Below, one piece after another: positions 3,568 to 48,927 of a stretch of 64,000 nt of DNA. This stretch comes from Escherichia coli (GTDB taxonomy: Bacteria > Pseudomonadota > Gammaproteobacteria > Enterobacterales > Enterobacteriaceae). The stretch is from the NCBI RefSeq assembly GCF_051903065.1, contig NZ_CP178438.1; one strand, given 5' to 3'. Below the pieces are notes generated by a model. The model worked only from the letters and a program-made list of their open reading frames with translations, searched no databases and was not told the origin of the DNA. Each line of letters starts with the position of its first letter. The stretch's first letter is position 1. Position numbers and translations under genes: made by a program.

Positions 3568-4401
3568 CTAGCGTAAATGCACGCCGCTTCGCCGTCCGGC
3601 CACCAGAATAGCCTGCGATTCAACCCCTTCTTCGATCTGTTTTGCTACCCGTTGTAGTGCCGGAAGATGCTTTTCCGCTGCCTGTTCGATGGTCATTGCG
3701 CTCGCCATATACACCAGGTTCAAACAGCCAATCACCCGTTGTTCACTGCGCAGCGGTACGGCGATAGAGGCGATCTTCTCCTCCTGATCCCAGCCGCGGT
3801 AGTTCTGTCCGTAACCCTCTTTGCGCGCGCGCGCCAGAATGGCTTGCAGCTTTAACGGTTCTCGTGCCAGTTGATAGTCATCACCGGGGCGGGAGGCTAA
3901 CATTTCGATTAATTCCTTGCGTTCTTGTTCCGGGCAAAAGGCCAGCCAGGTCAGGCCCGAGGCGGTTTTCAGAAGCGGCAAACGTCGCCCGACCATTGCC
4001 CGGTGAAAGGATAAGCGGCTGAAACGGTGGGTGGTTTCGCGTACCACCATTGCATCAACATCCAGCGTGGACACATCTGTCGGCCATACCACTTCGCGCA
4101 ACAGATCGCCCAGCAGTGGGGCCGCCAGTGCAGAAATCCACTGTTCGTCACGAAATCCTTCGCTTAATTGCCGCACTTTGATGGTCAGACGAAAACTATC
4201 ATCGGAGGGACTACGCCGGACATATCCCTCTTCCTGCAGCGTCTCCAGCAGTCGCCGCACAGTGGTGCGATGCAGGCCGCTGAGTTCCGCCAGCAGCCCG
4301 ACGCTGGCACCGCCGTCAAGTTTATTTAACATATTTAATAACATTAGACCGCGGGTTAAGCCGCGCACGGTTTTGTATTCCGTCTGCTCATTGTTCTGCA
4401 T
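3568..4401 (-). CDS. mhpR: IclR-family activator of the mhp operon, MhpR
   Basis: Translation from the ATG at 4401 (MQNNEQTEYKTVRGLTRG...) gives the 277-aa MhpR; divergent from mhpA. Confidence 0.93.
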   Translation of the reverse strand: MQNNEQTEYKTVRGLTRGLMLLNMLNKLDGGASVGLLAELSGLHRTTVRRLLETLQEEGYVRRSPSDDSFRLTIKVRQLSEGFRDEQWISALAAPLLGDLLREVVWPTDVSTLDVDAMVVRETTHRFSRLSFHRAMVGRRLPLLKTASGLTWLAFCPEQERKELIEMLASRPGDDYQLAREPLKLQAILARARKEGYGQNYRGWDQEEKIASIAVPLRSEQRVIGCLNLVYMASAMTIEQAAEKHLPALQRVAKQIEEGVESQAILVAGRRSGVHLR

Positions 4402-27245: not shown

Positions 27246-28220
27246 TTAACGCAGAATCTTCTTCTCAGCCAAATCCAGCGCAAAGTAGCTGAAAATCAGA
27301 TCCGCACCCGCACGCTTAATCGAACCTAAGCTTTCGAGCACCACTTTCTCTTCATCTATAGCACCCGCCAGCGCGGCGAACTTAATCATCGCATACTCAC
27401 CGCTCACCTGATACGCGCCAATCGGCAATTCAGTACGTTCACGCAGCTCACGCACGATGTCGAGGTACGCTCCAGCAGGTTTAACCATCAGGCAGTCTGC
27501 GCCCTGGGCTTCATCCAGCAGTGATTCACGAATCGCCTCGCGACGGTTCATTGGGTTCATCTGATAGCTTTTGCGGTCGCCTTTTAATGCGCTTCCGGCA
27601 GCTTCACGGAACGGACCATAAAAGGAAGAGGCGAACTTGGTCGAATACGACATAATCGCCGTATCTTTAAAGCCCGCAGCGTCCAGCGCCTGACGAATCG
27701 CCTGTACCTGGCCATCCATCGCGGCGGAAGGGGCGATGAAGTCTGCACCTGCAGCAGCTGCAACCACGGCTTGCTTGCCTAAATTTTCCAGAGTCGCGTC
27801 GTTGTCGACGCCATGCTCGCACAGCACACCGCAGTGACCGTGAGAAGTGTATTCACAGAAGCAGGTGTCTGACATGACAATCATTTCTGGCACGGTCTGC
27901 TTGCAGATGCGCGACATACGCGCCACCAGTCCATCTTCCCGCCAGGCATCGCTGCCGGTTTCATCGGTATGGTGAGAGATGCCGAAAGTCATCACGGAAC
28001 GAATACCGGCGTTGGCGATGCGTTCAATTTCGCGTGCCAGATGTTTCTCTGGAATGCGCATCACGCCAGGCATGGCTTCAACGGCTTTGTAGTCGTCAAT
28101 TTCTTCTTCAACAAAGATCGGCAACACCAGGTCGTTAAGGCTAAGTGTTGTCTCTTCAAACATAGCGCGCAGCGCAGGAGATTTGCGCAGGCGACGAGGG
28201 CGTTGGATTAAGTCTGTCAT
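27246..28220 (-). CDS. hemB: porphobilinogen synthase (delta-aminolevulinic acid dehydratase)
   Basis: 324-aa product from the ATG at 28220 ([37 protein letters not shown]...). Confidence 0.95.
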
Positions 28221-28745
28221 GGTCTGCCTGATGTTTGTGGAATTAAGGTGCACAGTATACCTGAAGCGGGGCAGGAGTGTTTTACGAAAGTTGTCACGAT
28301 GTTGACAAGAAGAGAATGAAAGAGAGACCAGGGCATCTTTGTAATAGAAATAGCAATAACTTCATATTCACTGAAAATATTTTTTAATTTTTATTTATAG
28401 GTGCTGGTTATTATTTTTGCCAATTTGGTTGAACTGTCAAAAATTGAATTACTTAAAGTTCATTGCTTATTGATACATTATTTGTCTGATTTGTTGTTTT
28501 GGTATTTTTAGGATCTATAATTCAAAATTAATGATTTCATTAACGTGTTGAAATGCAGTGTTTTTGTCAACTTATTCTTTGTGCGTATAGATATTTTTAT
28601 ATATGTCCGCAATCGGACTTAGGGGAAAGAATAATTGAACCATTCCTCTATAACGCCGCATAATCGTCAACGCGAAACATAAGATGTTTTCTATGCATTG
28701 ATAATTGATGGATCAACTTATTACGTCCCTGAGGAGGGATGACAA

Positions 28746-31688
<2,943 letters not shown>

Positions 31689-31710
31689 TATTCTTCACTC
31701 CGAAGAAATA

Positions 31711-32399
<689 letters not shown>

Positions 32400-33557
32400 T
32401 CAGGATGCGGGGATAACCAACGGTTTATTCCCGCTTAGCTCGGTCACCAGATCATTGATGCCATCGCTCATATTTTTAAAGCGCGTCAACGGCGAACGAG
32501 TGACCACCACAAACGCGCCAATATTCTTCTGCGGGATCATCGCCATATAGGTAATGAAACCGCCACCACCACCTGTCTTCTGAATAATCCCCGGACGACC
32601 CTCTTTCGGGGCCATATATACCCAGCCTAAACCAAGCGCATCCGCTTTGCCGGGGACATCCATGCCAATCACTTTCGTAAACTGCGCGCGCTGATAAATC
32701 AACGTCTGCATGCGATCTGCCTGGTTACTGCGCTGATAAAAATCAGATGACAAATACTGCTGCATCCAGCGCATCATATCGCCAGGCGTGGAATAGACGC
32801 CGCCGCTGCCAATTGCCGCCAGCGTGTTATTGCACGGACTGGCACCGCGCTCTGCAACCATTAAACGGCGGCACTGATCCGGTGAGGGGGTGTAGGTGGT
32901 GTCTTTCATCCCCAATGGACGGGTAATCTGCTCTTCAAACAACTGGGTATAAGGCTTGCCGGACGCATTCGCCAGTGCATCTGCCAGCAGGTCGAACGCA
33001 AGGTTAGAGTACGCCGCCTGACTGCCTGGCGCGGCTTTCAGCTTCGCCGTAGAAAGGTATTTCCAGCGTTGCTCGCGCGTTGGCCAGACAAACACCGGAC
33101 GATGTGCCGCGCCACCGGGCTGTTCACGGGGCAGGGCGCTGGTATGGGTTGCCAGATTGACCAGCGTAATGGGCGTCCCATTGTAGGTTGGCACGCATGC
33201 GCCTGGCGGAGCATATTTACTTAGCGGATCGTTTAACTTCACGGTCCCCTGGTCGAGCAATTTCACCAGCATCTCACTGGTCATTAGCTTGGTGAGGGAA
33301 GCAATACGCACGACCGAATCCAGCTGCGGGCGAACGTTATTACCAGGTCGCGTTTCGCCATAACTGCGAAAGACGCGCTGGTTACCGTCGATAACAACCA
33401 GCGCCATCCCCGTGGCACCGCTGCCGTAAAAAATATGATCGGCATAACGATCAACAATATCAGAAGCGAACTCCGGTTCAGTGATCGGCTGTGCCGCATG
33501 GACGGAGGTCAATGACGCCGCACACAGCACGGCAGAAAAAAGCAGACTACGTTTCAA
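32400..33557 (-). CDS. ampH: D-alanyl-D-alanine carboxypeptidase/endopeptidase AmpH (class C beta-lactamase-like penicillin-binding protein)
   Basis: 385-aa ORF with signal peptide and the SxxK motif (ASLTK); apparent TTG start. Confidence 0.92.
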   Translation of the reverse strand: MKRSLLFSAVLCAASLTSVHAAQPITEPEFASDIVDRYADHIFYGSGATGMALVVIDGNQRVFRSYGETRPGNNVRPQLDSVVRIASLTKLMTSEMLVKLLDQGTVKLNDPLSKYAPPGACVPTYNGTPITLVNLATHTSALPREQPGGAAHRPVFVWPTREQRWKYLSTAKLKAAPGSQAAYSNLAFDLLADALANASGKPYTQLFEEQITRPLGMKDTTYTPSPDQCRRLMVAERGASPCNNTLAAIGSGGVYSTPGDMMRWMQQYLSSDFYQRSNQADRMQTLIYQRAQFTKVIGMDVPGKADALGLGWVYMAPKEGRPGIIQKTGGGGGFITYMAMIPQKNIGAFVVVTRSPLTRFKNMSDGINDLVTELSGNKPLVIPAS

Positions 33558-33908
33558 CGGTGGTGTCCATAAATTGAATGAAGGTAACTGAGCGTATTTA
33601 TACTACTCATTGATGGATTGCAAAGGGCGAATTAGTGCAATAATAGTGTTAAAAACGTAACGGCGCGTAAACACGATCTTTTTCCTGCTCACCAATGCCT
33701 GCATTTGTGATCCTGCGCGTGTTAATCCGCTTATGTAAACAATCTTTGGTTTGTGAAATCCGTCGAAACAATTCTTATGGTCAGGCTGGCGAACTAAGCG
33801 CCTTGCTATGGGTCACAATGGGCGGTTTCATTTGGCTGACGCTTTGTAGCGGTCATGCGGTTAATACACAGCAGTTGTTAAAACGATAAGAAGTTAGCAG
33901 GAGTGCAT

Positions 33909-35129
33909 ATGTTTAAGTCTTTTTTCCCAAAGCCGGGAACGTTTTTTCTCTCGGCCTTTGTTTGGGCATTGATTGCCGTTATCTTCTGGCAAGCCGGTGG
34001 GGGTGACTGGGTGGCGCGTATCACCGGCGCTTCCGGGCAGATCCCGATTAGCGCCGCGCGTTTCTGGTCGTTGGATTTCCTGATTTTTTACGCTTACTAC
34101 ATTGTTTGCGTAGGACTTTTTGCATTGTTCTGGTTTATCTACAGCCCGCATCGTTGGCAATACTGGTCAATACTCGGTACTGCGCTGATTATCTTCGTCA
34201 CCTGGTTTTTGGTGGAAGTCGGGGTTGCCGTCAACGCCTGGTATGCGCCGTTCTATGATCTGATTCAAACCGCGCTAAGTTCGCCGCATAAAGTCACCAT
34301 CGAACAATTTTACCGCGAAGTGGGCGTCTTTCTGGGGATTGCGCTGATCGCGGTAGTGATCAGTGTGCTGAATAACTTCTTTGTCAGTCACTACGTGTTC
34401 CGCTGGCGTACGGCGATGAACGAATATTACATGGCGAACTGGCAACAACTGCGTCATATCGAAGGCGCCGCACAGCGTGTGCAGGAAGACACCATGCGTT
34501 TTGCTTCAACGCTGGAGAATATGGGTGTCAGTTTTATCAACGCCATCATGACGTTGATCGCCTTCCTGCCGGTGCTGGTAACGCTCTCCGCGCATGTGCC
34601 GGAGCTGCCGATTATCGGGCACATTCCGTATGGTCTGGTGATTGCCGCTATCGTCTGGTCGCTGATGGGGACCGGATTGCTGGCAGTGGTAGGGATCAAA
34701 CTGCCGGGGCTGGAGTTTAAAAACCAGCGAGTAGAGGCTGCCTACCGTAAAGAGCTGGTTTATGGTGAAGACGATGCCACGCGCGCGACGCCGCCTACGG
34801 TACGCGAGCTGTTTAGCGCCGTACGGAAAAACTATTTCCGCCTCTATTTTCACTATATGTATTTCAACATCGCTCGCATTCTCTATTTGCAGGTCGATAA
34901 CGTTTTCGGTTTGTTCTTGCTGTTTCCGTCAATTGTTGCCGGTACGATTACGCTCGGCCTGATGACGCAGATTACCAACGTTTTTGGTCAGGTTCGCGGT
35001 GCTTTCCAGTACCTGATTAACTCATGGACCACACTGGTTGAGTTGATGTCTATCTACAAACGTCTGCGCAGCTTTGAACATGAGCTGGATGGTGACAAAA
35101 TTCAGGAAGTAACCCATACCTTGAGCTAA
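33909..35129 (+). CDS. sbmA: peptide antibiotic/antimicrobial peptide transporter SbmA
   Basis: 406-aa product from the ATG at 33909 ([28 protein letters not shown]...). Confidence 0.95.
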
Positions 35130-37075: not shown

Positions 37076-37098
37076 GAATATTATCGGGCGTTAAAATA

Positions 37099-40432: not shown

Positions 40433-40437
40433 AACCG

Positions 40438-40476
40438 CTCCCGGCAGTGAATTTTCGCTGCCGGGTGGTTTTTTTG
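40438..40476 (+). terminator. rho-independent terminator after phoA
   Basis: Hairpin cccggcag...ctgccggg followed by a T run (tggttttttt). Confidence 0.85.
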
Positions 40477-40972: not shown

Positions 40973-42088
40973 ATGTTCCCAAAAATAATGAATGATGAAA
41001 ACTTTTTCAAAAAAGCGGCGGCGCACGGGGAGGAACCTCCTTTAACTCCTCAAAACGAACATCAGCGGTCCGGGCTGCGCTTCGCCCGTCGCGTCAGACT
41101 ACCCCGTGCGGTTGGCCTGGCTGGCATGTTCTTACCGATTGCTTCAACGCTGGTTTCACACCCGCCGCCGGGCTGGTGGTGGCTGGTGTTGGTCGGCTGG
41201 GCGTTCGTCTGGCCGCATTTAGCCTGGCAGATAGCGAGCAGGGCCGTCGATCCGCTTAGCCGGGAAATTTACAACTTAAAAACCGATGCAGTATTAGCGG
41301 GAATGTGGGTAGGCGTAATGGGCGTAAACGTGCTGCCTTCCACCGCGATGTTGATGATTATGTGTCTGAATTTGATGGGGGCAGGCGGCCCCCGTCTGTT
41401 TGTCGCGGGTCTGGTGTTGATGGTGGTTTCCTGCCTTGTCACCCTCGAGCTGACGGGCATTACCGTGTCGTTCAATAGTGCGCCGCTGGAATGGTGGCTC
41501 TCCCTTCCCATTATTGTCATTTATCCTCTGCTGTTTGGCTGGGTCAGCTACCAGACGGCAACCAAACTGGCGGAACATAAACGCAGGTTGCAGGTCATGA
41601 GTACACGCGACGGCATGACGGGCGTGTATAACCGACGTCATTGGGAAACTATGTTACGCAATGAATTTGATAACTGTCGGCGACATAATCGCGATGCAAC
41701 GTTACTGATTATCGATATCGACCATTTCAAGAGCATCAACGATACCTGGGGCCATGATGTGGGCGATGAAGCGATTGTGGCGCTTACCCGACAGTTACAA
41801 ATTACCCTGCGTGGTAGCGATGTGATTGGTCGGTTTGGCGGCGATGAGTTTGCAGTAATCATGTCCGGTACGCCAGCTGAGAGCGCCATTACCGCCATGT
41901 TACGAGTGCATGAAGGATTAAATACGTTACGCCTGCCGAATACGCCGCAGGTGATGTTACGGATTAGTGTGGGGGTTGCGCCGCTGAACCCACAAATGAG
42001 TCACTATCGTGAGTGGTTGAAATCGGCAGATTTGGCGCTCTACAAAGCAAAGAAAGCCGGACGTAACCGCACCGAAGTGGCGGCCTGA
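40973..42088 (+). CDS. dgcC: diguanylate cyclase DgcC (AdrA/YaiC)
   Basis: 371-aa ORF with an N-terminal membrane (MASE2-like) region and a GGDEF domain (RFGGDEFAV). Confidence 0.93.
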   Translation: MFPKIMNDENFFKKAAAHGEEPPLTPQNEHQRSGLRFARRVRLPRAVGLAGMFLPIASTLVSHPPPGWWWLVLVGWAFVWPHLAWQIASRAVDPLSREIYNLKTDAVLAGMWVGVMGVNVLPSTAMLMIMCLNLMGAGGPRLFVAGLVLMVVSCLVTLELTGITVSFNSAPLEWWLSLPIIVIYPLLFGWVSYQTATKLAEHKRRLQVMSTRDGMTGVYNRRHWETMLRNEFDNCRRHNRDATLLIIDIDHFKSINDTWGHDVGDEAIVALTRQLQITLRGSDVIGRFGGDEFAVIMSGTPAESAITAMLRVHEGLNTLRLPNTPQVMLRISVGVAPLNPQMSHYREWLKSADLALYKAKKAGRNRTEVAA

Positions 42089-42104
42089 CGTCCGGCGAAA
42101 GTCA

Positions 42105-45731: not shown

Positions 45732-47065
45732 TTCCTCGCCTTCCCCTTGAACGGGAGGGCATTTTTCTGAAATATCCTCTCTTTAACCCATAATAATATT
45801 TCCTTTGCTGCGATTTTTTCAATTTCCGATATATTCATAATTCATCAAGGTTGATATCAATATCATTGAAGATTATGAATAGAATTAATATATTGGTCAT
45901 CTGTATGGTCGTGTTTTTTATGACTGGCAATGCATGTGCCACAGAGTGGATCAGTAGCGAGGACCTTATCACCTCTGACTTTCATCTTATGACGGCAGAT
46001 GAGCGCAACGTGGTTAAAGCGGCAACCGACGATAGTATGGAAGCTGCTTATATGCTAAAAGATAATATCCGCTGGTATTATCATAATGGTAACCTATCAT
46101 TACCCGCTAACTTCAGCAATCAAAATAAACTGGTGGTGAACGGTAATTTAACGATTTCCGGCGATTATGATGATTATCTGTCAGGTAATGGTCATCTGAT
46201 TGTATTAGGTAATGTTATTGTCGATAACTTTATTAATCATGATTTCGCGTATGTCAAAGGACAGATGACAGCGAAAGGTTTAGTTTATGCTGATTACAAT
46301 GATCACAACTTTGAAGTGATGAAGGGAATTAGCGCGCGAGGCATTATTGTTTCCGATAAAGCAACGCAATTTGAGGTCATCAAAGCTGAGTTTTATATCA
46401 ATGAAGATGAAAGCGGTGAAGGATATAACTGGGATGAGAATATTCAAAAAGCCTATTCACTGGTGACTGCCGATCTTTATGATCACACTGAAATCGAAAC
46501 CGATAACATTTCCAATGCGTATCCTGACTATGATAGCGTCGCAGACAACATCGTTCAGGGTTTACCTCTTTTTTGCGATAAAGCCGCTCCTGAAATTAAT
46601 GAGAAATTAAAATGGATTGAAACGGGGAAACTCGATAATTTCCCAGCGAATAAAATAAAGCATCAAGATCCACTGGTGGCACGTTTTCTGACTCATACAG
46701 AGAGTTTATCACCCGCCGTTATGCTGCAACTGTTACAGCACCCCGATGACCAGACGCGTGAATCGATGGCGCAGTCCTGGCCCGCTCAACAGATGCATTT
46801 GCTTACCGATGAATTAATTAAAGATGAGGCTGTTGCCAGAGGGCTGGTTAAAAACAGTAATATTTCCGCCGATGTGAATAAAAAATTAATGTCTGTACCC
46901 GTCGAGAGCGTACAGCTGGAGCAGGCCAGACAGGATAATCTTTCTCCAGATATTGTTGCGTCGTTAAGTCATAGCCCCTTTCTCAGTGTACGCAAGACAT
47001 TACTCAGCCAGGTGATGCTGCCAACTTACTGATTTAGTGTATGATGGTGTTTTTGAGGTGCTCCA

Positions 47066-47341
47066 GTGGCTTCTGTTTCTATCAGCTGTCCCTCCTGTTC
47101 AGCTACTGACGGGGTGGTGCGTAACGGCAAAAGCACCGCCGGACATCAGCGCTATCTCTGCTCTCACTGCCGTAAAACATGGCAACTGCAGTTCACTTAC
47201 ACCGCTTCTCAACCCGGTACGCACCAGAAAATCATTGATATGGCCATGAATGGCGTTGGATGCCGGGCAACAGCCCGCATTATGGGCGTTGGCCTCAACA
47301 CGATTTTACGTCACTTAAAAAACTCAGGCCGCAGTCGGTAA
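47066..47341 (+). CDS. insA: IS1 protein InsA
   Basis: 91-aa ORF ([43 protein letters not shown]...) at IS1 positions 56..331. Confidence 0.95.
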
Positions 47342-47763
47342 CCTCGCGCATACAGCCGGGCAGTGACGTCATCGTCTGCGCGGAAATGGACGAACAGTGG
47401 GGCTATGTCGGGGCTAAATCGCGCCAGCGCTGGCTGTTTTACGCGTATGACAGGCTCCGGAAGACGGTTGTTGCGCACGTATTCGGTGAACGCACTATGG
47501 CGACGCTGGGGCGTCTTATGAGCCTGCTGTCACCCTTTGACGTGGTGATATGGATGACGGATGGCTGGCCGCTGTATGAATCCCGCCTGAAGGGAAAGCT
47601 GCACGTAATCAGCAAGCGATATACGCAGCGAATTGAGCGGCATAACCTGAATCTGAGGCAGCACCTGGCACGGCTGGGACGGAAGTCGCTGTCGTTCTCA
47701 AAATCGGTGGAGCTGCATGACAAAGTCATCGGGCATTATCTGAACATAAAACACTATCAATAA
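47260..47763 (+). CDS. insB: IS1 InsB (transposase made as an InsAB' fusion by -1 frameshift at the A6C motif near 47317..47323)
   Basis: 167-aa ORF in the -1 frame relative to insA; the aaaaaac slippery site is present in the overlap. Confidence 0.93.
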
Positions 47764-48927
47764 GTTGGAGTCATTACCACTCAGCCATTACGATTACGCC
47801 TGGCTGGTTCCGACTGCAGTGGCCGATGAGTTGATAAATAACGAAGACCCGGAGTTACGTGAAAGAATTACCGGAGCAGATTTAACCGCACAACAAGCAG
47901 TGATGTTGAGTAAAGATAAATCACTGAAAGTTCGTGAAGCATTAGCCCGGACGCTTACTGAATTAAAAATTACCCAACTGTCAGCAACCCTGCGTACAGA
48001 GGATATTGAACGTATCGCAGAACAAATGTATCTGGATAATAAAGAAAATAAAAATATCGTAAAAGCGTTATTGATAGCGTTGCCGGAGATGCGTCAACTG
48101 TCTCTGGCAAAAGAAGATGTGCACAATTTGCGCGAAGGTGCGCGTTATCTGACATCGAAGGACGTGATTAGTTATCTATTGACTCAGCATGATGTTCCCA
48201 CCGTCTGGGATGAGCTGGCACGCGATAAATTATTGCCGCTGGAATATAAGAAACAGTTATGGCAACGCACATTAAATTTAATGATGAGCAAACGGCAAGA
48301 AGATCAAGAGCAAGCCTACGAAGTACAGCTGGCGCTGATTGATAATGGTGTTGTTGACGAAGAGATGTTAAATAATGCCATTGATTTACTGGTTGATTTA
48401 CCCGCTGAATACCGCTATCGAATGCGTAACCAATTATTTGATAATAAAGATTTACCTTCCGGAATTATCAACAAACTCGATCAACAGTATCGCTTCAACT
48501 CTGACTGGGCGCTGTCTGTTGACAGTATGAAAAATAGCACCCGTAGGCAAAGTGAAAGAGGATTACACCGCTGGAACCGTGAGGATAGCGATATTTTTGC
48601 GGAACTGGCGACGATAAAAGATAAATCAGATGATGAATGGTGGCGTGCATTGCTGCAAAGTCGCAATGATCATTTGCGCCAAACGGCATTACGCAACGCA
48701 CATACCCCGGCGTCGTTGTTAACGACATTGACTGAGCCTCAGGATCGGTCGCTGGCTATTAATAATCCACAGCTGGCTGCCGATGTGAAAACGGCGTGGT
48801 TAAAAGAGGATCCATCATTACTCTTATTTGTCGAACAACCCGATCTTTCGCTGTTACGTGATTTAGTGAAAACCGGGGCAACGCGGAAAATTCGCAGTGA
48901 AGCGCGTCACCGGCTTGAGGAAAAACA

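Follow-up and report, generated by a model that had tools for sequence, protein, structure and literature searches.

A conserved hairpin in the 3' end of iprA as the probable transcript-end signal of the convergent gene ampH in Escherichia coli and related Enterobacteriaceae

Results

Organization of the iprA/ampH junction

We analyzed a window of 64,000 nucleotides of Escherichia coli DNA (NCBI RefSeq assembly GCF_051903065.1, contig NZ_CP178438.1), in which iprA (yaiV) and ampH are convergent (Table 1). The longest open reading frame of iprA begins at 31731, and RefSeq places the start at 31776. A winged-helix domain, HTH_46 (Pfam PF15977, E 5e-31), occupies residues 138-205 of IprA and reaches its C-terminus. 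AmpH is a DD-carboxypeptidase/endopeptidase of the class C beta-lactamase fold (PF00144, E 2e-67). The two coding sequences touch without overlapping, and the annotation of K-12 MG1655 is identical, with iprA at 394506..395129 (+) and ampH at 395130..396287 (-). The stop codon coordinates and the K-12 annotation thus confirm a preliminary description of this DNA, which had reported that the two genes abut without a spacer. Of 5426 complete E. coli genomes, 5409 matched a 111-nt junction probe at a coverage of at least 80%, and 4655 records showed an identity of at least 99%. The gaps of the eight convergent pairs in the window were 135, 106, 0, 58, 23, 16, 77, and 142 nt. Tight spacing is not unique to iprA/ampH within the window, and the abutment is an ordinary, already annotated arrangement of a known kind.

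Table 1. Features at and around the iprA/ampH junction (window coordinates)
Feature	Position	Strand	Description
iprA (yaiV) coding sequence	31776..32399	+	207 aa; stop TAA at 32397-32399; RefSeq and K-12 annotation
U-rich tail	32347..32357	-	UUUAUUCAUUU; directly 3' of the embedded hairpin; iprA codons E191-K194
Embedded hairpin, ampH sense	32358..32386	-	GGCAAACGGUUG-AUAG-CGACC(A)GUUUGCC; iprA codons G195-P204
Junction	32397..32402	both	GAGTATTAATCAGGATGC; iprA TAA, then complement of ampH TGA; 0 nt spacer
ampH coding sequence	33557..32400	-	385 aa; stop TGA, complement of 32400-32402; annotation and Pfam
Hairpin, iprA sense	32407..32434	+	GCGGGGAUAA-CCAACGGU-UUAUUCCCGC; about -14.6 kcal/mol; ampH codons S375-A384
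C-rich, G-poor stretch	32560..32639	+	41% C, 16% G; untranslated iprA read-through RNA
proC terminator	42096..42056	-	inside the 3' end of adrA

The arrangement was compared among 57 Enterobacteriaceae species with convergent iprA and ampH. The stop-to-stop gap was 0 nt in 10 species, 1 nt in 10, 2 nt in 12, and 3-5 nt in 5. In 14 others it was -4, the stops being shared in TTAA (TAA/TAA); these are 4-nt overlaps of coding sequences in Kluyvera, Pseudocitrobacter, and some Enterobacter, Leclercia, and Huaxiibacter, unlike E. coli, where the coding sequences touch. Longer gaps were seen in the remaining species (13-14 nt in three, 35 nt in one, and 43-44 nt in two). The abutment had been described as possibly coincidental, and its conservation had been named as a check. 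The gap lay between -4 and +5 nt in 51 of the 57 species, which contradicts a coincidence of one genome.

A terminator-like hairpin past the ampH stop

The RNA of the ampH strand forms a hairpin within the 3' end of iprA, beginning 14 nt past the ampH TGA in E. coli. It consists of 12 pairs (7 of them G-C) with a 4-nt loop and one bulged A, has a folding energy of -15.3 kcal/mol, and can be extended by four A-U/G-U pairs to 32390..32354. Its edge at 32386 lies 11 nt before the iprA stop (32397), and together with the tail the hairpin falls within the last 17 codons of iprA (codons 191-204). It was present in both the MFE and the centroid structures, and the 141-nt region had a z of -2.2 against shuffles. 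In the other species, a downstream scan, judged by eye and untabulated, placed the stem similarly close behind the ampH stop. The tail of E. coli contains 8 U in 11 nt, the first three contiguous, and is thus an interrupted U tract; an intrinsic terminator would have a run of about 7-9 U directly behind its stem. The element has the G+C-rich stem-loop of an intrinsic terminator and lies on the same strand just past the ampH stop. From this anatomy, we propose that the hairpin and its tail are a predicted intrinsic terminator of ampH.

A window-wide scan for hairpins with T tails ranked the embedded candidate 18th of 293 with a tail score of 3.52, that is, of middle strength; the best-ranked candidates fell at real gene ends (proC, phoA, and brnQ). 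A separate terminator scan, whose number of candidates was no higher than in shuffles, returned only the inner 5-bp part (32379..32366) owing to the bulge and was not counted as evidence. No match to Rfam 15 was obtained at E <= 1 for either strand of 31000-34000.

Compensatory changes and conservation of the hairpin

Among the orthologous sequences, the eight core pairs were Watson-Crick in 465 of 480 cells (97%). The exceptions, read in the ampH sense, included 11 G-U and only 2 A-C cells, and both A-C cells belonged to lineages possessing an intergenic hairpin of their own. The pair of columns 21 and 39, which joins synonymous third positions of Arg CGN and Lys AAR, was A-U in 46 sequences, G-C in 12, G-U in 2, and A-C in none. 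The pair of columns 15 and 45 was A-U in 32 and G-C in 25, and in one species a C-G pair had become U-A by a double synonymous change (GGT/TTA). Double changes occurred at seven pairs of the embedded hairpin. The proportion of paired cells was 85%, against 80.2 +/- 0.6 in shuffles, and was reached by 0 of 500 shuffles, a count that is not a probability because the sequences are phylogenetically related. The compensatory changes went beyond coding constraint, as is the case in structured RNA under selection.

Of 60 distinct orthologous sequences, 40 carried a U-rich tail, and 39 had 6 or more U within 12 nt. In the other 20, from Enterobacter, Lelliottia, Leclercia, Silvania, and Huaxiibacter, the U tract was replaced by a CCGG/CCUG extension of the stem, leaving a conserved hairpin without a U tail. 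Since the tail is missing in these sequences, the hairpin conserved across the family may act in 3' stabilization or pausing and not as a classical terminator. In Kluyvera, the inner stem shifts its register and the pairing is kept. No such hairpin was found downstream of ampH in Klebsiella and most Raoultella, and the hairpin is therefore not indispensable.

Synonymous recoding, paralogues, and natural rearrangements

The peptide G-K-L...R-L-P of IprA encoded here is nearly invariant and part of the Pfam domain. Compared with synonymous recodings of the same peptide, the observed sequences folded far more stably (mean of -19.0 kcal/mol, with null averages between about -8 and -12), and 54 of 58 lay within the tail of at most 5% of recodings. 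The embedded hairpin is near-palindromic and folds on either strand, and the recoding test was equally significant on both; the strand was therefore assigned from three other features, namely the U tract, the excess of G-U over A-C cells, and where the hairpin lies with respect to the two stops. The peptide GKL..LP is also kept in iprA-like paralogues from three other genomic contexts; there the region folds weakly, at -5.7 to -9.1 kcal/mol, which lies within the recoding null (0.47-0.83). The embedded hairpin was absent from those paralogues, which do not adjoin ampH. A by-product of coding alone was rejected on the recoding null together with this paralogue control. A protein-binding DNA palindrome, GGCAAAC-N15-GUUUGCC, was also rejected as an explanation, given the one-strand tolerance of G-U, the inner stem that stays paired through register changes, and the loss in paralogues away from ampH.

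Several lineages have rearranged the junction. In Franconibacter, where the spacer is 35 nt long and has its own hairpin, the embedded stem is gone, and a fraction of 0.79 of the recodings fold equally well. Salmonella arizonae has a 43-nt spacer with its own hairpin followed by UUUUGUU, and its embedded stem is weakened. In three lineages (L008, L035, and L040), ehaB-iprA has been deleted and a 3' relic of iprA of 18, 32, or 34 codons is left between ampH and hemB. What each relic retains is exactly the hairpin and the U tract.

The 3' end of iprA

No canonical terminator was found for iprA. A hairpin on the + strand begins 8 nt past the iprA stop and is followed by the U-poor tail UUAGCUCGG; the + strand of 32400-33600 contained no other terminator-like site. 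Outside Escherichia and the Citrobacter freundii group, this hairpin was not conserved, and it was broken in Salmonella, Kluyvera, and Enterobacter. It was rejected as a conserved iprA terminator because of its U-poor tail and its restriction to these groups despite conservation of the AmpH peptide. It is possibly a weak or non-canonical 3' end of iprA. Judged by its base composition, the C-rich, G-poor stretch further into ampH might be a candidate Rho loading region.

Mapped 3' ends and transcript overlap

The Term-seq tables of Adams et al. 2021 (PMC7815308) contained no 3' end for ampH, yaiV, or iprA, nor one at 39507x-39509x. Inside ampH, at 395316, they list a Rho-dependent region of the - strand with a Rho score of 2.48 and low read counts, which suggests that Rho may act on the ampH strand too. 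Neither gene is mentioned in the supplements of TERMITe (PMC12207403) and SMRT-Cappable-seq (PMC6131387), and nothing on the junction was found in literature on iprA/yaiV together with ampH.

Because no canonical iprA terminator was found and the putative ampH terminator lies inside iprA, the transcripts must overlap by at least about 50 nt. The proposal that the two 3' UTRs overlap as antisense RNA is thereby upheld, since abutting genes require complementary mRNA 3' ends. Such overlap is common and is by itself no sign of regulation: Conway et al. 2014 (PMC4161252) counted it in 276 of 370 convergent E. coli operons, with a mean length of 286 nt. Those operons, of which the same study cites ilvA/ilvY as a classical case, resemble iprA/ampH in their complementary 3' transcript ends. 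They differ in that their overlap mostly reflects leaky termination across an intergenic terminator; at iprA/ampH, a terminator placed past the partner's stop codon would make some overlap inevitable.

Discussion

Terminators can function without intergenic space. The zero-length spacer at iprA/ampH is real, old, and stable, and it probably exists because the 3'-end signal of ampH sits in the neighboring gene, where the hairpin likely ends the ampH transcript. Transcription of ampH on the - strand would pass its stop and, 14 nt on, produce the 12-bp G+C-rich hairpin (32386..32358) and then UUUAUUCAUUU up to 32347, which in E. coli is the anatomy expected of a Rho-independent terminator. We infer that the hairpin terminates the ampH RNA rather than only stabilizing it. 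The predicted end of the ampH mRNA is about 50 nt into iprA antisense, at about 395079-395082 on the - strand of K-12. The same 40 nt encode the last strand-turn-strand (M-N-K-G-K-L-V-A-I-N-R-L-P) of the winged helix of IprA, and with this stretch doubly constrained, by protein and by hairpin, an intergenic spacer becomes dispensable. The iprA transcript most likely enters ampH antisense and may end inefficiently at the weak hairpin of 32407-32434, by Rho on the C-rich RNA, or by both.

The preliminary description had also held that the genes leave no room for terminators. This is refuted by the terminator-like hairpin and U tract inside the iprA 3' end, with its comparative signs of selection, and again by a second case in the window, the proC terminator inside the 3' end of adrA. 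In both cases, a G+C-rich hairpin and a U-rich tail lie a few nucleotides past the stop and are encoded by the last codons of the opposite gene, and the gap is too short to hold a terminator (16 nt at adrA/proC and 0 nt at iprA/ampH). The ampH element differs in lying wholly within the partner ORF, including the first base of the stem, and in its U tract, which is interrupted and which one clade lacks. The hairpin of proC is also much stronger (-26.7 vs -15.3 kcal/mol).

Overlapping bidirectional terminators between convergent gene pairs have reportedly been described by Ju, Li and Liu in 2019. The model requires a hairpin, and its model locus is ynaJ-uspE (Wang et al., bioRxiv 10.1101/2022.10.23.513370). 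If the iprA/ampH junction were of this type, hairpins would pause the RNA polymerases arriving from both sides, and head-on and trailing collisions would dislodge them; this mechanism would fix the 3' ends of both iprA and ampH and leave the U tract a secondary role. The pair is convergent, a hairpin sequence lies in the transcript overlap, and one gene is without a classical terminator; hairpins on both strands flank the stops, the embedded one folds on both strands, and the Enterobacter clade, which lengthens the hairpin and loses the U tract, fits a U-independent role. However, the embedded hairpin is not downstream of both stops but upstream of that of iprA, so that an iprA 3' end there would leave a non-stop mRNA, and the hairpin past the iprA stop is unconserved beyond Escherichia and the C. 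freundii group. The embedded hairpin was also kept where iprA had been deleted and ampH was without a convergent partner. The collision mode works better at highly expressed pairs (bioRxiv 10.1101/2022.10.23.513370), and the lack of a Term-seq end for either gene suggests low expression. Bidirectional terminators are described as intergenic and as unlike intrinsic terminators; the ampH side resembles a normal intrinsic terminator inside an ORF. We consider a bidirectional terminator unlikely at this junction.

It seems quite unlikely that the element has no RNA function, the repeat being a by-product of IprA peptide and codon usage or a protein-bound DNA palindrome, the absent spacer a neutral end-point of deletion bias, and the transcripts ending elsewhere by Rho or read-through. 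The near-invariant peptide within a Pfam domain, the Term-seq tables without a 3' end for either gene, the Rho-dependent region on the - strand, and the genera that manage without the hairpin are all consistent with such a view. Against it, synonymous recodings of the same peptide fold much worse in 54 of 58 cases, and paralogues with the same motif away from ampH lack the hairpin. Paired synonymous sites compensate with zero A-C intermediates, the asymmetry of G-U and A-C points to RNA of one strand, and relics persist after gene loss. The inner stem of Kluyvera re-registers yet stays paired, which a bipartite protein site does not predict. The preliminary description had further read the antisense overlap as possibly regulatory, in which case RNase III cleavage of the duplex or transcriptional interference would make the expression of iprA and ampH reciprocally dependent. 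Given the anatomy, the two transcripts must indeed overlap over some 50 nt or more, and the tight arrangement is widespread (51/57 species). We regard this coupling as very unlikely, because 75% of convergent E. coli operons overlap regardless (PMC4161252) and the tightness would be fully accounted for by the embedded terminator. In addition, Salmonella and Franconibacter carry insertions of 35-44 nt and several lineages have dropped iprA and kept ampH, which argues against an essential coupling.

Returning to an ampH signal within iprA, we lean toward the broader view that, throughout the history of the Enterobacteriaceae, one 40-nt stretch has done double duty, forming the C-terminal wing of IprA, a transcription factor, and supplying ampH on the opposite strand with its 3'-end hairpin or terminator, the two functions visibly co-evolving. 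The rare codons Leu TTG and Arg CGG are held through base pairing, and the synonymous sites of a pair switch together. The amino-acid changes K194R and S205T/A lengthen the stem in one clade, and the element outlasts iprA as a relic of 18-34 codons.

The practical importance of these findings is small. They correct the reasoning that a zero spacer means no terminator and hence a special coupling, as terminators are encoded in a convergent neighbor twice in this window. A caution for annotation and engineering is that Keio-type knockouts, codon-reassignment projects, and other changes that delete or recode the iprA/yaiV 3' end may remove the terminator of ampH. Its loss could send transcription into ehaB/yaiT antisense or, in the deletion strains, into hemB. 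For evolution, the locus is a tidy case of an RNA structure of the other strand shaping C-terminal synonymous sites and even amino-acid choices. If this is true, iprA would show neatly, in a natural setting, how the terminator of a neighbor can constrain the C-terminus of a protein.

Abutting stop codons at the iprA/ampH junction

The preliminary description had reported that the stop codons of iprA (then yaiV) and the convergent ampH touch. The open reading frames of the window bear this out, as do the annotation of K-12 MG1655, in which iprA and ampH meet between 395129 and 395130, and a 111-nt junction probe, which 5409 of 5426 complete E. coli genomes contain. The abutment is already present in public annotation. 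The 2.1 kb around the junction were 100% identical to strain 23CRST027, and matched 5420 of the 5426 genomes at 97–100% identity. iprA is annotated as a 'hydrogen peroxide resistance inhibitor' and also as a putative DNA-binding regulator. It is AT-rich (37–43% G+C) compared with the adjoining ampH (52–60% G+C), and the stretch between hemB and ehaB is richer still in A+T (Table). Such a step in composition would fit an acquired origin of the ehaB-iprA segment. The autotransporter gene ehaB, upstream of iprA, is intact here, and its K-12 MG1655 counterpart yaiT is an IS3-split pseudogene. Just one large difference separates the window from the 23CRST027 genome: an IS1 copy, with a 9-bp target duplication (ACTCAGCCA), that interrupts a DUF2773-domain gene intact in that otherwise near-identical strain.

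Features of the iprA/ampH junction, the wider window and loci fetched from other Enterobacteriaceae genomes (L-numbers; positions within the locus)
Feature	Position	Strand	Remarks
iprA (formerly yaiV)	31776 (RefSeq start)..32399	+	207 aa; stop TAA 32397-32399
ampH	33557..32400	-	penicillin-binding DD-carboxypeptidase/endopeptidase; stop TGA, complement of 32400-32402
Embedded hairpin GGCAAACGGUUG-AUAG-CGACC(A)GUUUGCC	32386..32358	- (ampH sense)	by folding
U tract UUUAUUCAUUU	directly after hairpin, to 32347	- (ampH sense)	
iprA-sense hairpin	32407-32434	+	about -14.6 kcal/mol; starts 8 nt after iprA stop
C-rich, G-poor stretch	32560-32639	+	41% C, 16% G
AT-rich stretch, hemB to ehaB	28200-28800		G+C 27-35%
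ehaB	28746-31688		980 aa
yaiZ/ddlA (convergent)	37076-37098		23 nt between stops
phoA terminator	40435-40468	both	A tract before, T tract after
proC terminator	42096..42056	-	-26.7 kcal/mol; tail UUUCUUUGCUUU
IS1 copy	47011-47778 (region 47002-47787)		768 bp; 23-bp terminal inverted repeats; insA/insB' ORFs
iprA relic, L008 (Citrobacter MAG)	4162-4215		18 codons
iprA relic, L035 (Kluyvera ascorbata)	4158-4253		32 codons
iprA relic, L040 (Leclercia MAG)	3955-4056		34 codons
Spacer, L081 (Franconibacter)	4159-4193		35 nt
Spacer, L010 (Salmonella)	4159-4202		
Spacer, L014 (Salmonella)	4159-4201		

We took the ampH locus from 80 species-level Enterobacteriaceae genomes and located both stop codons. 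iprA was convergent with and adjacent to ampH in 57 species, and the tight arrangement was conserved, with a gap of ≤5 nt in 51 of them. The gap was -4 nt (TTAA, shared stops) in 14 species, 0 nt in 10, 1 nt in 10, 2 nt in 12, 3–5 nt in 5, 13–14 nt in 3, 35 nt in 1 (Franconibacter) and 43–44 nt in two Salmonella subspecies. Although the exact value drifts across these genomes, such extreme tightness is a long-standing and stable trait of the locus. The eight convergent pairs of the window have gaps of 135, 106, 0, 58, 23, 16, 77 and 142 nt, and tight spacing is not unique to iprA/ampH.

A candidate ampH terminator inside iprA

Starting 14 nt past the ampH stop, the ampH-sense RNA is predicted to fold into a hairpin of 12 pairs (7 G-C; -15.3 kcal/mol), which together with the U tract is built like a Rho-independent terminator. 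The whole element lies inside iprA, with the stem on codons G195–P204 and the U tract on codons E191–K194, within the winged-helix domain HTH_46 (Pfam; residues 138–205). Both strands of the window were scanned for hairpins that have a closing G-C pair and lead into a T-rich tail, and coordinates were corrected for the window's IS1 before matching to gene ends. The ampH-side hairpin ranked 18th of 293 candidates; the top candidates coincided with genuine gene ends, those of proC, phoA and brnQ. Rfam returned no match for the embedded hairpin.

The missing spacer had been read as leaving no room for terminators. It does not imply this, because a terminator can be embedded in the convergent neighbor: the ampH candidate sits inside iprA, and the proC terminator provides a second example in the window. 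The latter, the best candidate of the scan, begins 9 nt after proC, is followed by a T tract (TTTCTTTGCTTT, to about 42044) and lies mostly within the final codons of adrA, which is convergent with proC at a gap of 16 nt. proC/adrA is the closest match, namely an ordinary intrinsic terminator located in the reading frame of the convergent neighbor, as proposed for ampH. The phoA terminator scored high on both strands and is a candidate bidirectional terminator.

Selection on the hairpin

In an ungapped alignment of 61 sequences (60 distinct), the eight core pairs were Watson-Crick in 465 of 480 cells. Non-canonical core cells were asymmetric between the strands: read as ampH-sense RNA they included 11 G-U and only 2 A-C, and both A-C cells belonged to lineages having their own intergenic hairpin. 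Two pairs have a third codon position as each partner and are therefore free of protein constraint. The pair of Lys196 (AAR) and Arg202 (CGN) was A-U in 46 sequences, G-C in 12, G-U in 2 and A-C in none, and that of Gly195 (GGN) and Leu203 (TTR) was C-G in 58 and U-A in 1 (GGT with TTA). The pair of columns 15 and 45 was A-U in 32 and G-C in 25. Leu203 was encoded by TTG in 57 of 60 sequences (A in column 20), pairing with Lys AAA. TTG is a minor leucine codon in E. coli, and this rare codon appears to be held in place by the pairing.

For each species, the last 15 iprA codons were replaced by synonyms sampled from the codon usage of its iprA and ampH. Real sequences averaged -19.0 kcal/mol, whereas the means of the recoded sets were about -8 to -12 kcal/mol (median z -2.6), and the real fold was in the lowest 5% of recodings in 54 of 58 sequences. 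Because the sequence is a near-palindrome, the opposite strand predictably gave an equally strong signal. The recoding test therefore shows selection for a hairpin, with the strand left unspecified.

The Franconibacter and Salmonella spacers carry a strong hairpin of their own, which on the ampH strand is followed by a U tail, and the embedded hairpin has decayed in L014 and L081. In Franconibacter the embedded stem is gone and 0.79 of recodings fold as well; in Salmonella arizonae, whose 43-nt spacer has a hairpin plus UUUUGUU, the stem has lost one G-C pair through Pro→Leu. The embedded stem is relaxed where a substitute spacer hairpin exists (Franconibacter, Salmonella arizonae). The 23 loci that have no full-length iprA are all missing the entire ehaB-iprA segment, with hemB co-directional after ampH, and three retain iprA 3' relics with hairpin and U tract. 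A closely similar hairpin (AAGGCAGRCGG...CCGYYUGCCUU), probably an iprA relic eroded further, occupies the relic position in two more Citrobacter and four Kosakonia-like genomes.

Some Citrobacter genomes (L085–L089) carry a second autotransporter and HTH_46 cassette in three contexts, none near ampH; these copies suggest a mobile two-gene cassette. The paralogues retain the peptide ...GKL.(A/T/G)(V/I).(H/Q)LP..Y, but the corresponding 45 nt reach only -5.7 to -9.1 kcal/mol, which is well within the recoding null (0.47–0.83). Since the peptide is kept without a stable fold, the hairpin tracks ampH adjacency, not the protein family.

Transcript ends and coupling

In 20 of 60 sequences, from Enterobacter, Lelliottia, Leclercia, Silvania and Huaxiibacter, Lys194 is replaced by Arg (CGG/AGG) and UUU by CCG, which pairs with the altered codon 205; the stem is longer (-22 to -26 kcal/mol) and there is no U tract. 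The family-wide conserved part is therefore the hairpin, which in this clade may act in polymerase pausing, 3'-end protection or together with collisions, rather than as a classical terminator. A scan after the ampH stop found no comparable hairpin in Klebsiella and most Raoultella. The lists of Adams et al. 2021 (PMC7815308), predicted coordinates included, contain no ampH or iprA 3' ends, and the TERMITe (PMC12207403) and SMRT-Cappable-seq (PMC6131387) data sets name neither gene. The lists of Adams et al. do contain a Rho-dependent region inside ampH at K-12 395316 on the - strand (window about 32586; Rho score 2.48), with low counts of 56/57 reads untreated and 98/247 with bicyclomycin (BCM); after BCM, downstream reads exceed upstream reads. 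This signal looks more like Rho-suppressed antisense transcription over AT-rich iprA/yaiT than ampH read-through, and leaves room for Rho action on the - strand.

The iprA-sense hairpin has a U-poor tail (UUAGCUCGG). Escherichia and the Citrobacter freundii group retain it with a few G-U adjustments. In Salmonella and Kluyvera, changes at synonymous sites break it despite the conserved AmpH peptide SGNKP..IPAS, and Enterobacter lacks it. No other terminator-like site was found on the + strand at 32400–33600. The C-rich stretch would suit Rho loading on untranslated iprA read-through RNA. We infer that iprA may lack a dedicated efficient terminator and end by the weak hairpin and/or Rho within anti-ampH RNA.

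The expected antisense overlap holds: an ampH RNA ending near 32350 would be perfectly complementary to complete iprA mRNA over at least about 50 nt, and over more if the iprA transcript reads on. Such overlap is unremarkable, since complementary 3' ends occur in 276 of 370 convergent E. coli operons, with a mean overlap of 286 nt (Conway et al. 2014, PMC4161252). Coupling of expression had been raised as a possibility; that it is essential is argued against by the 35–44-nt spacer insertions, by repeated iprA loss with ampH retained, and by retention of the hairpin alone. Overlapping bidirectional terminators (Ju et al. 2019; Wang et al.), which combine collisions with hairpins between convergent genes, resemble iprA/ampH in being convergent and in requiring a hairpin, but are defined by paired 3' ends, of which Adams et al. 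list none for either gene. We do not place the junction in this class because the hairpin that is conserved sits upstream of the iprA stop and cannot serve both genes.

A literature search found no paper describing the comparative signal of the embedded iprA/ampH hairpin. The junction is real, but its arrangement is ordinary in mechanism and was annotated before. What is usefully corrected is the view of the ampH terminator, whose candidate is embedded, not absent; the compensatory synonymous changes, the relics after iprA loss and the loss of the hairpin in paralogues are a neat but minor addition.
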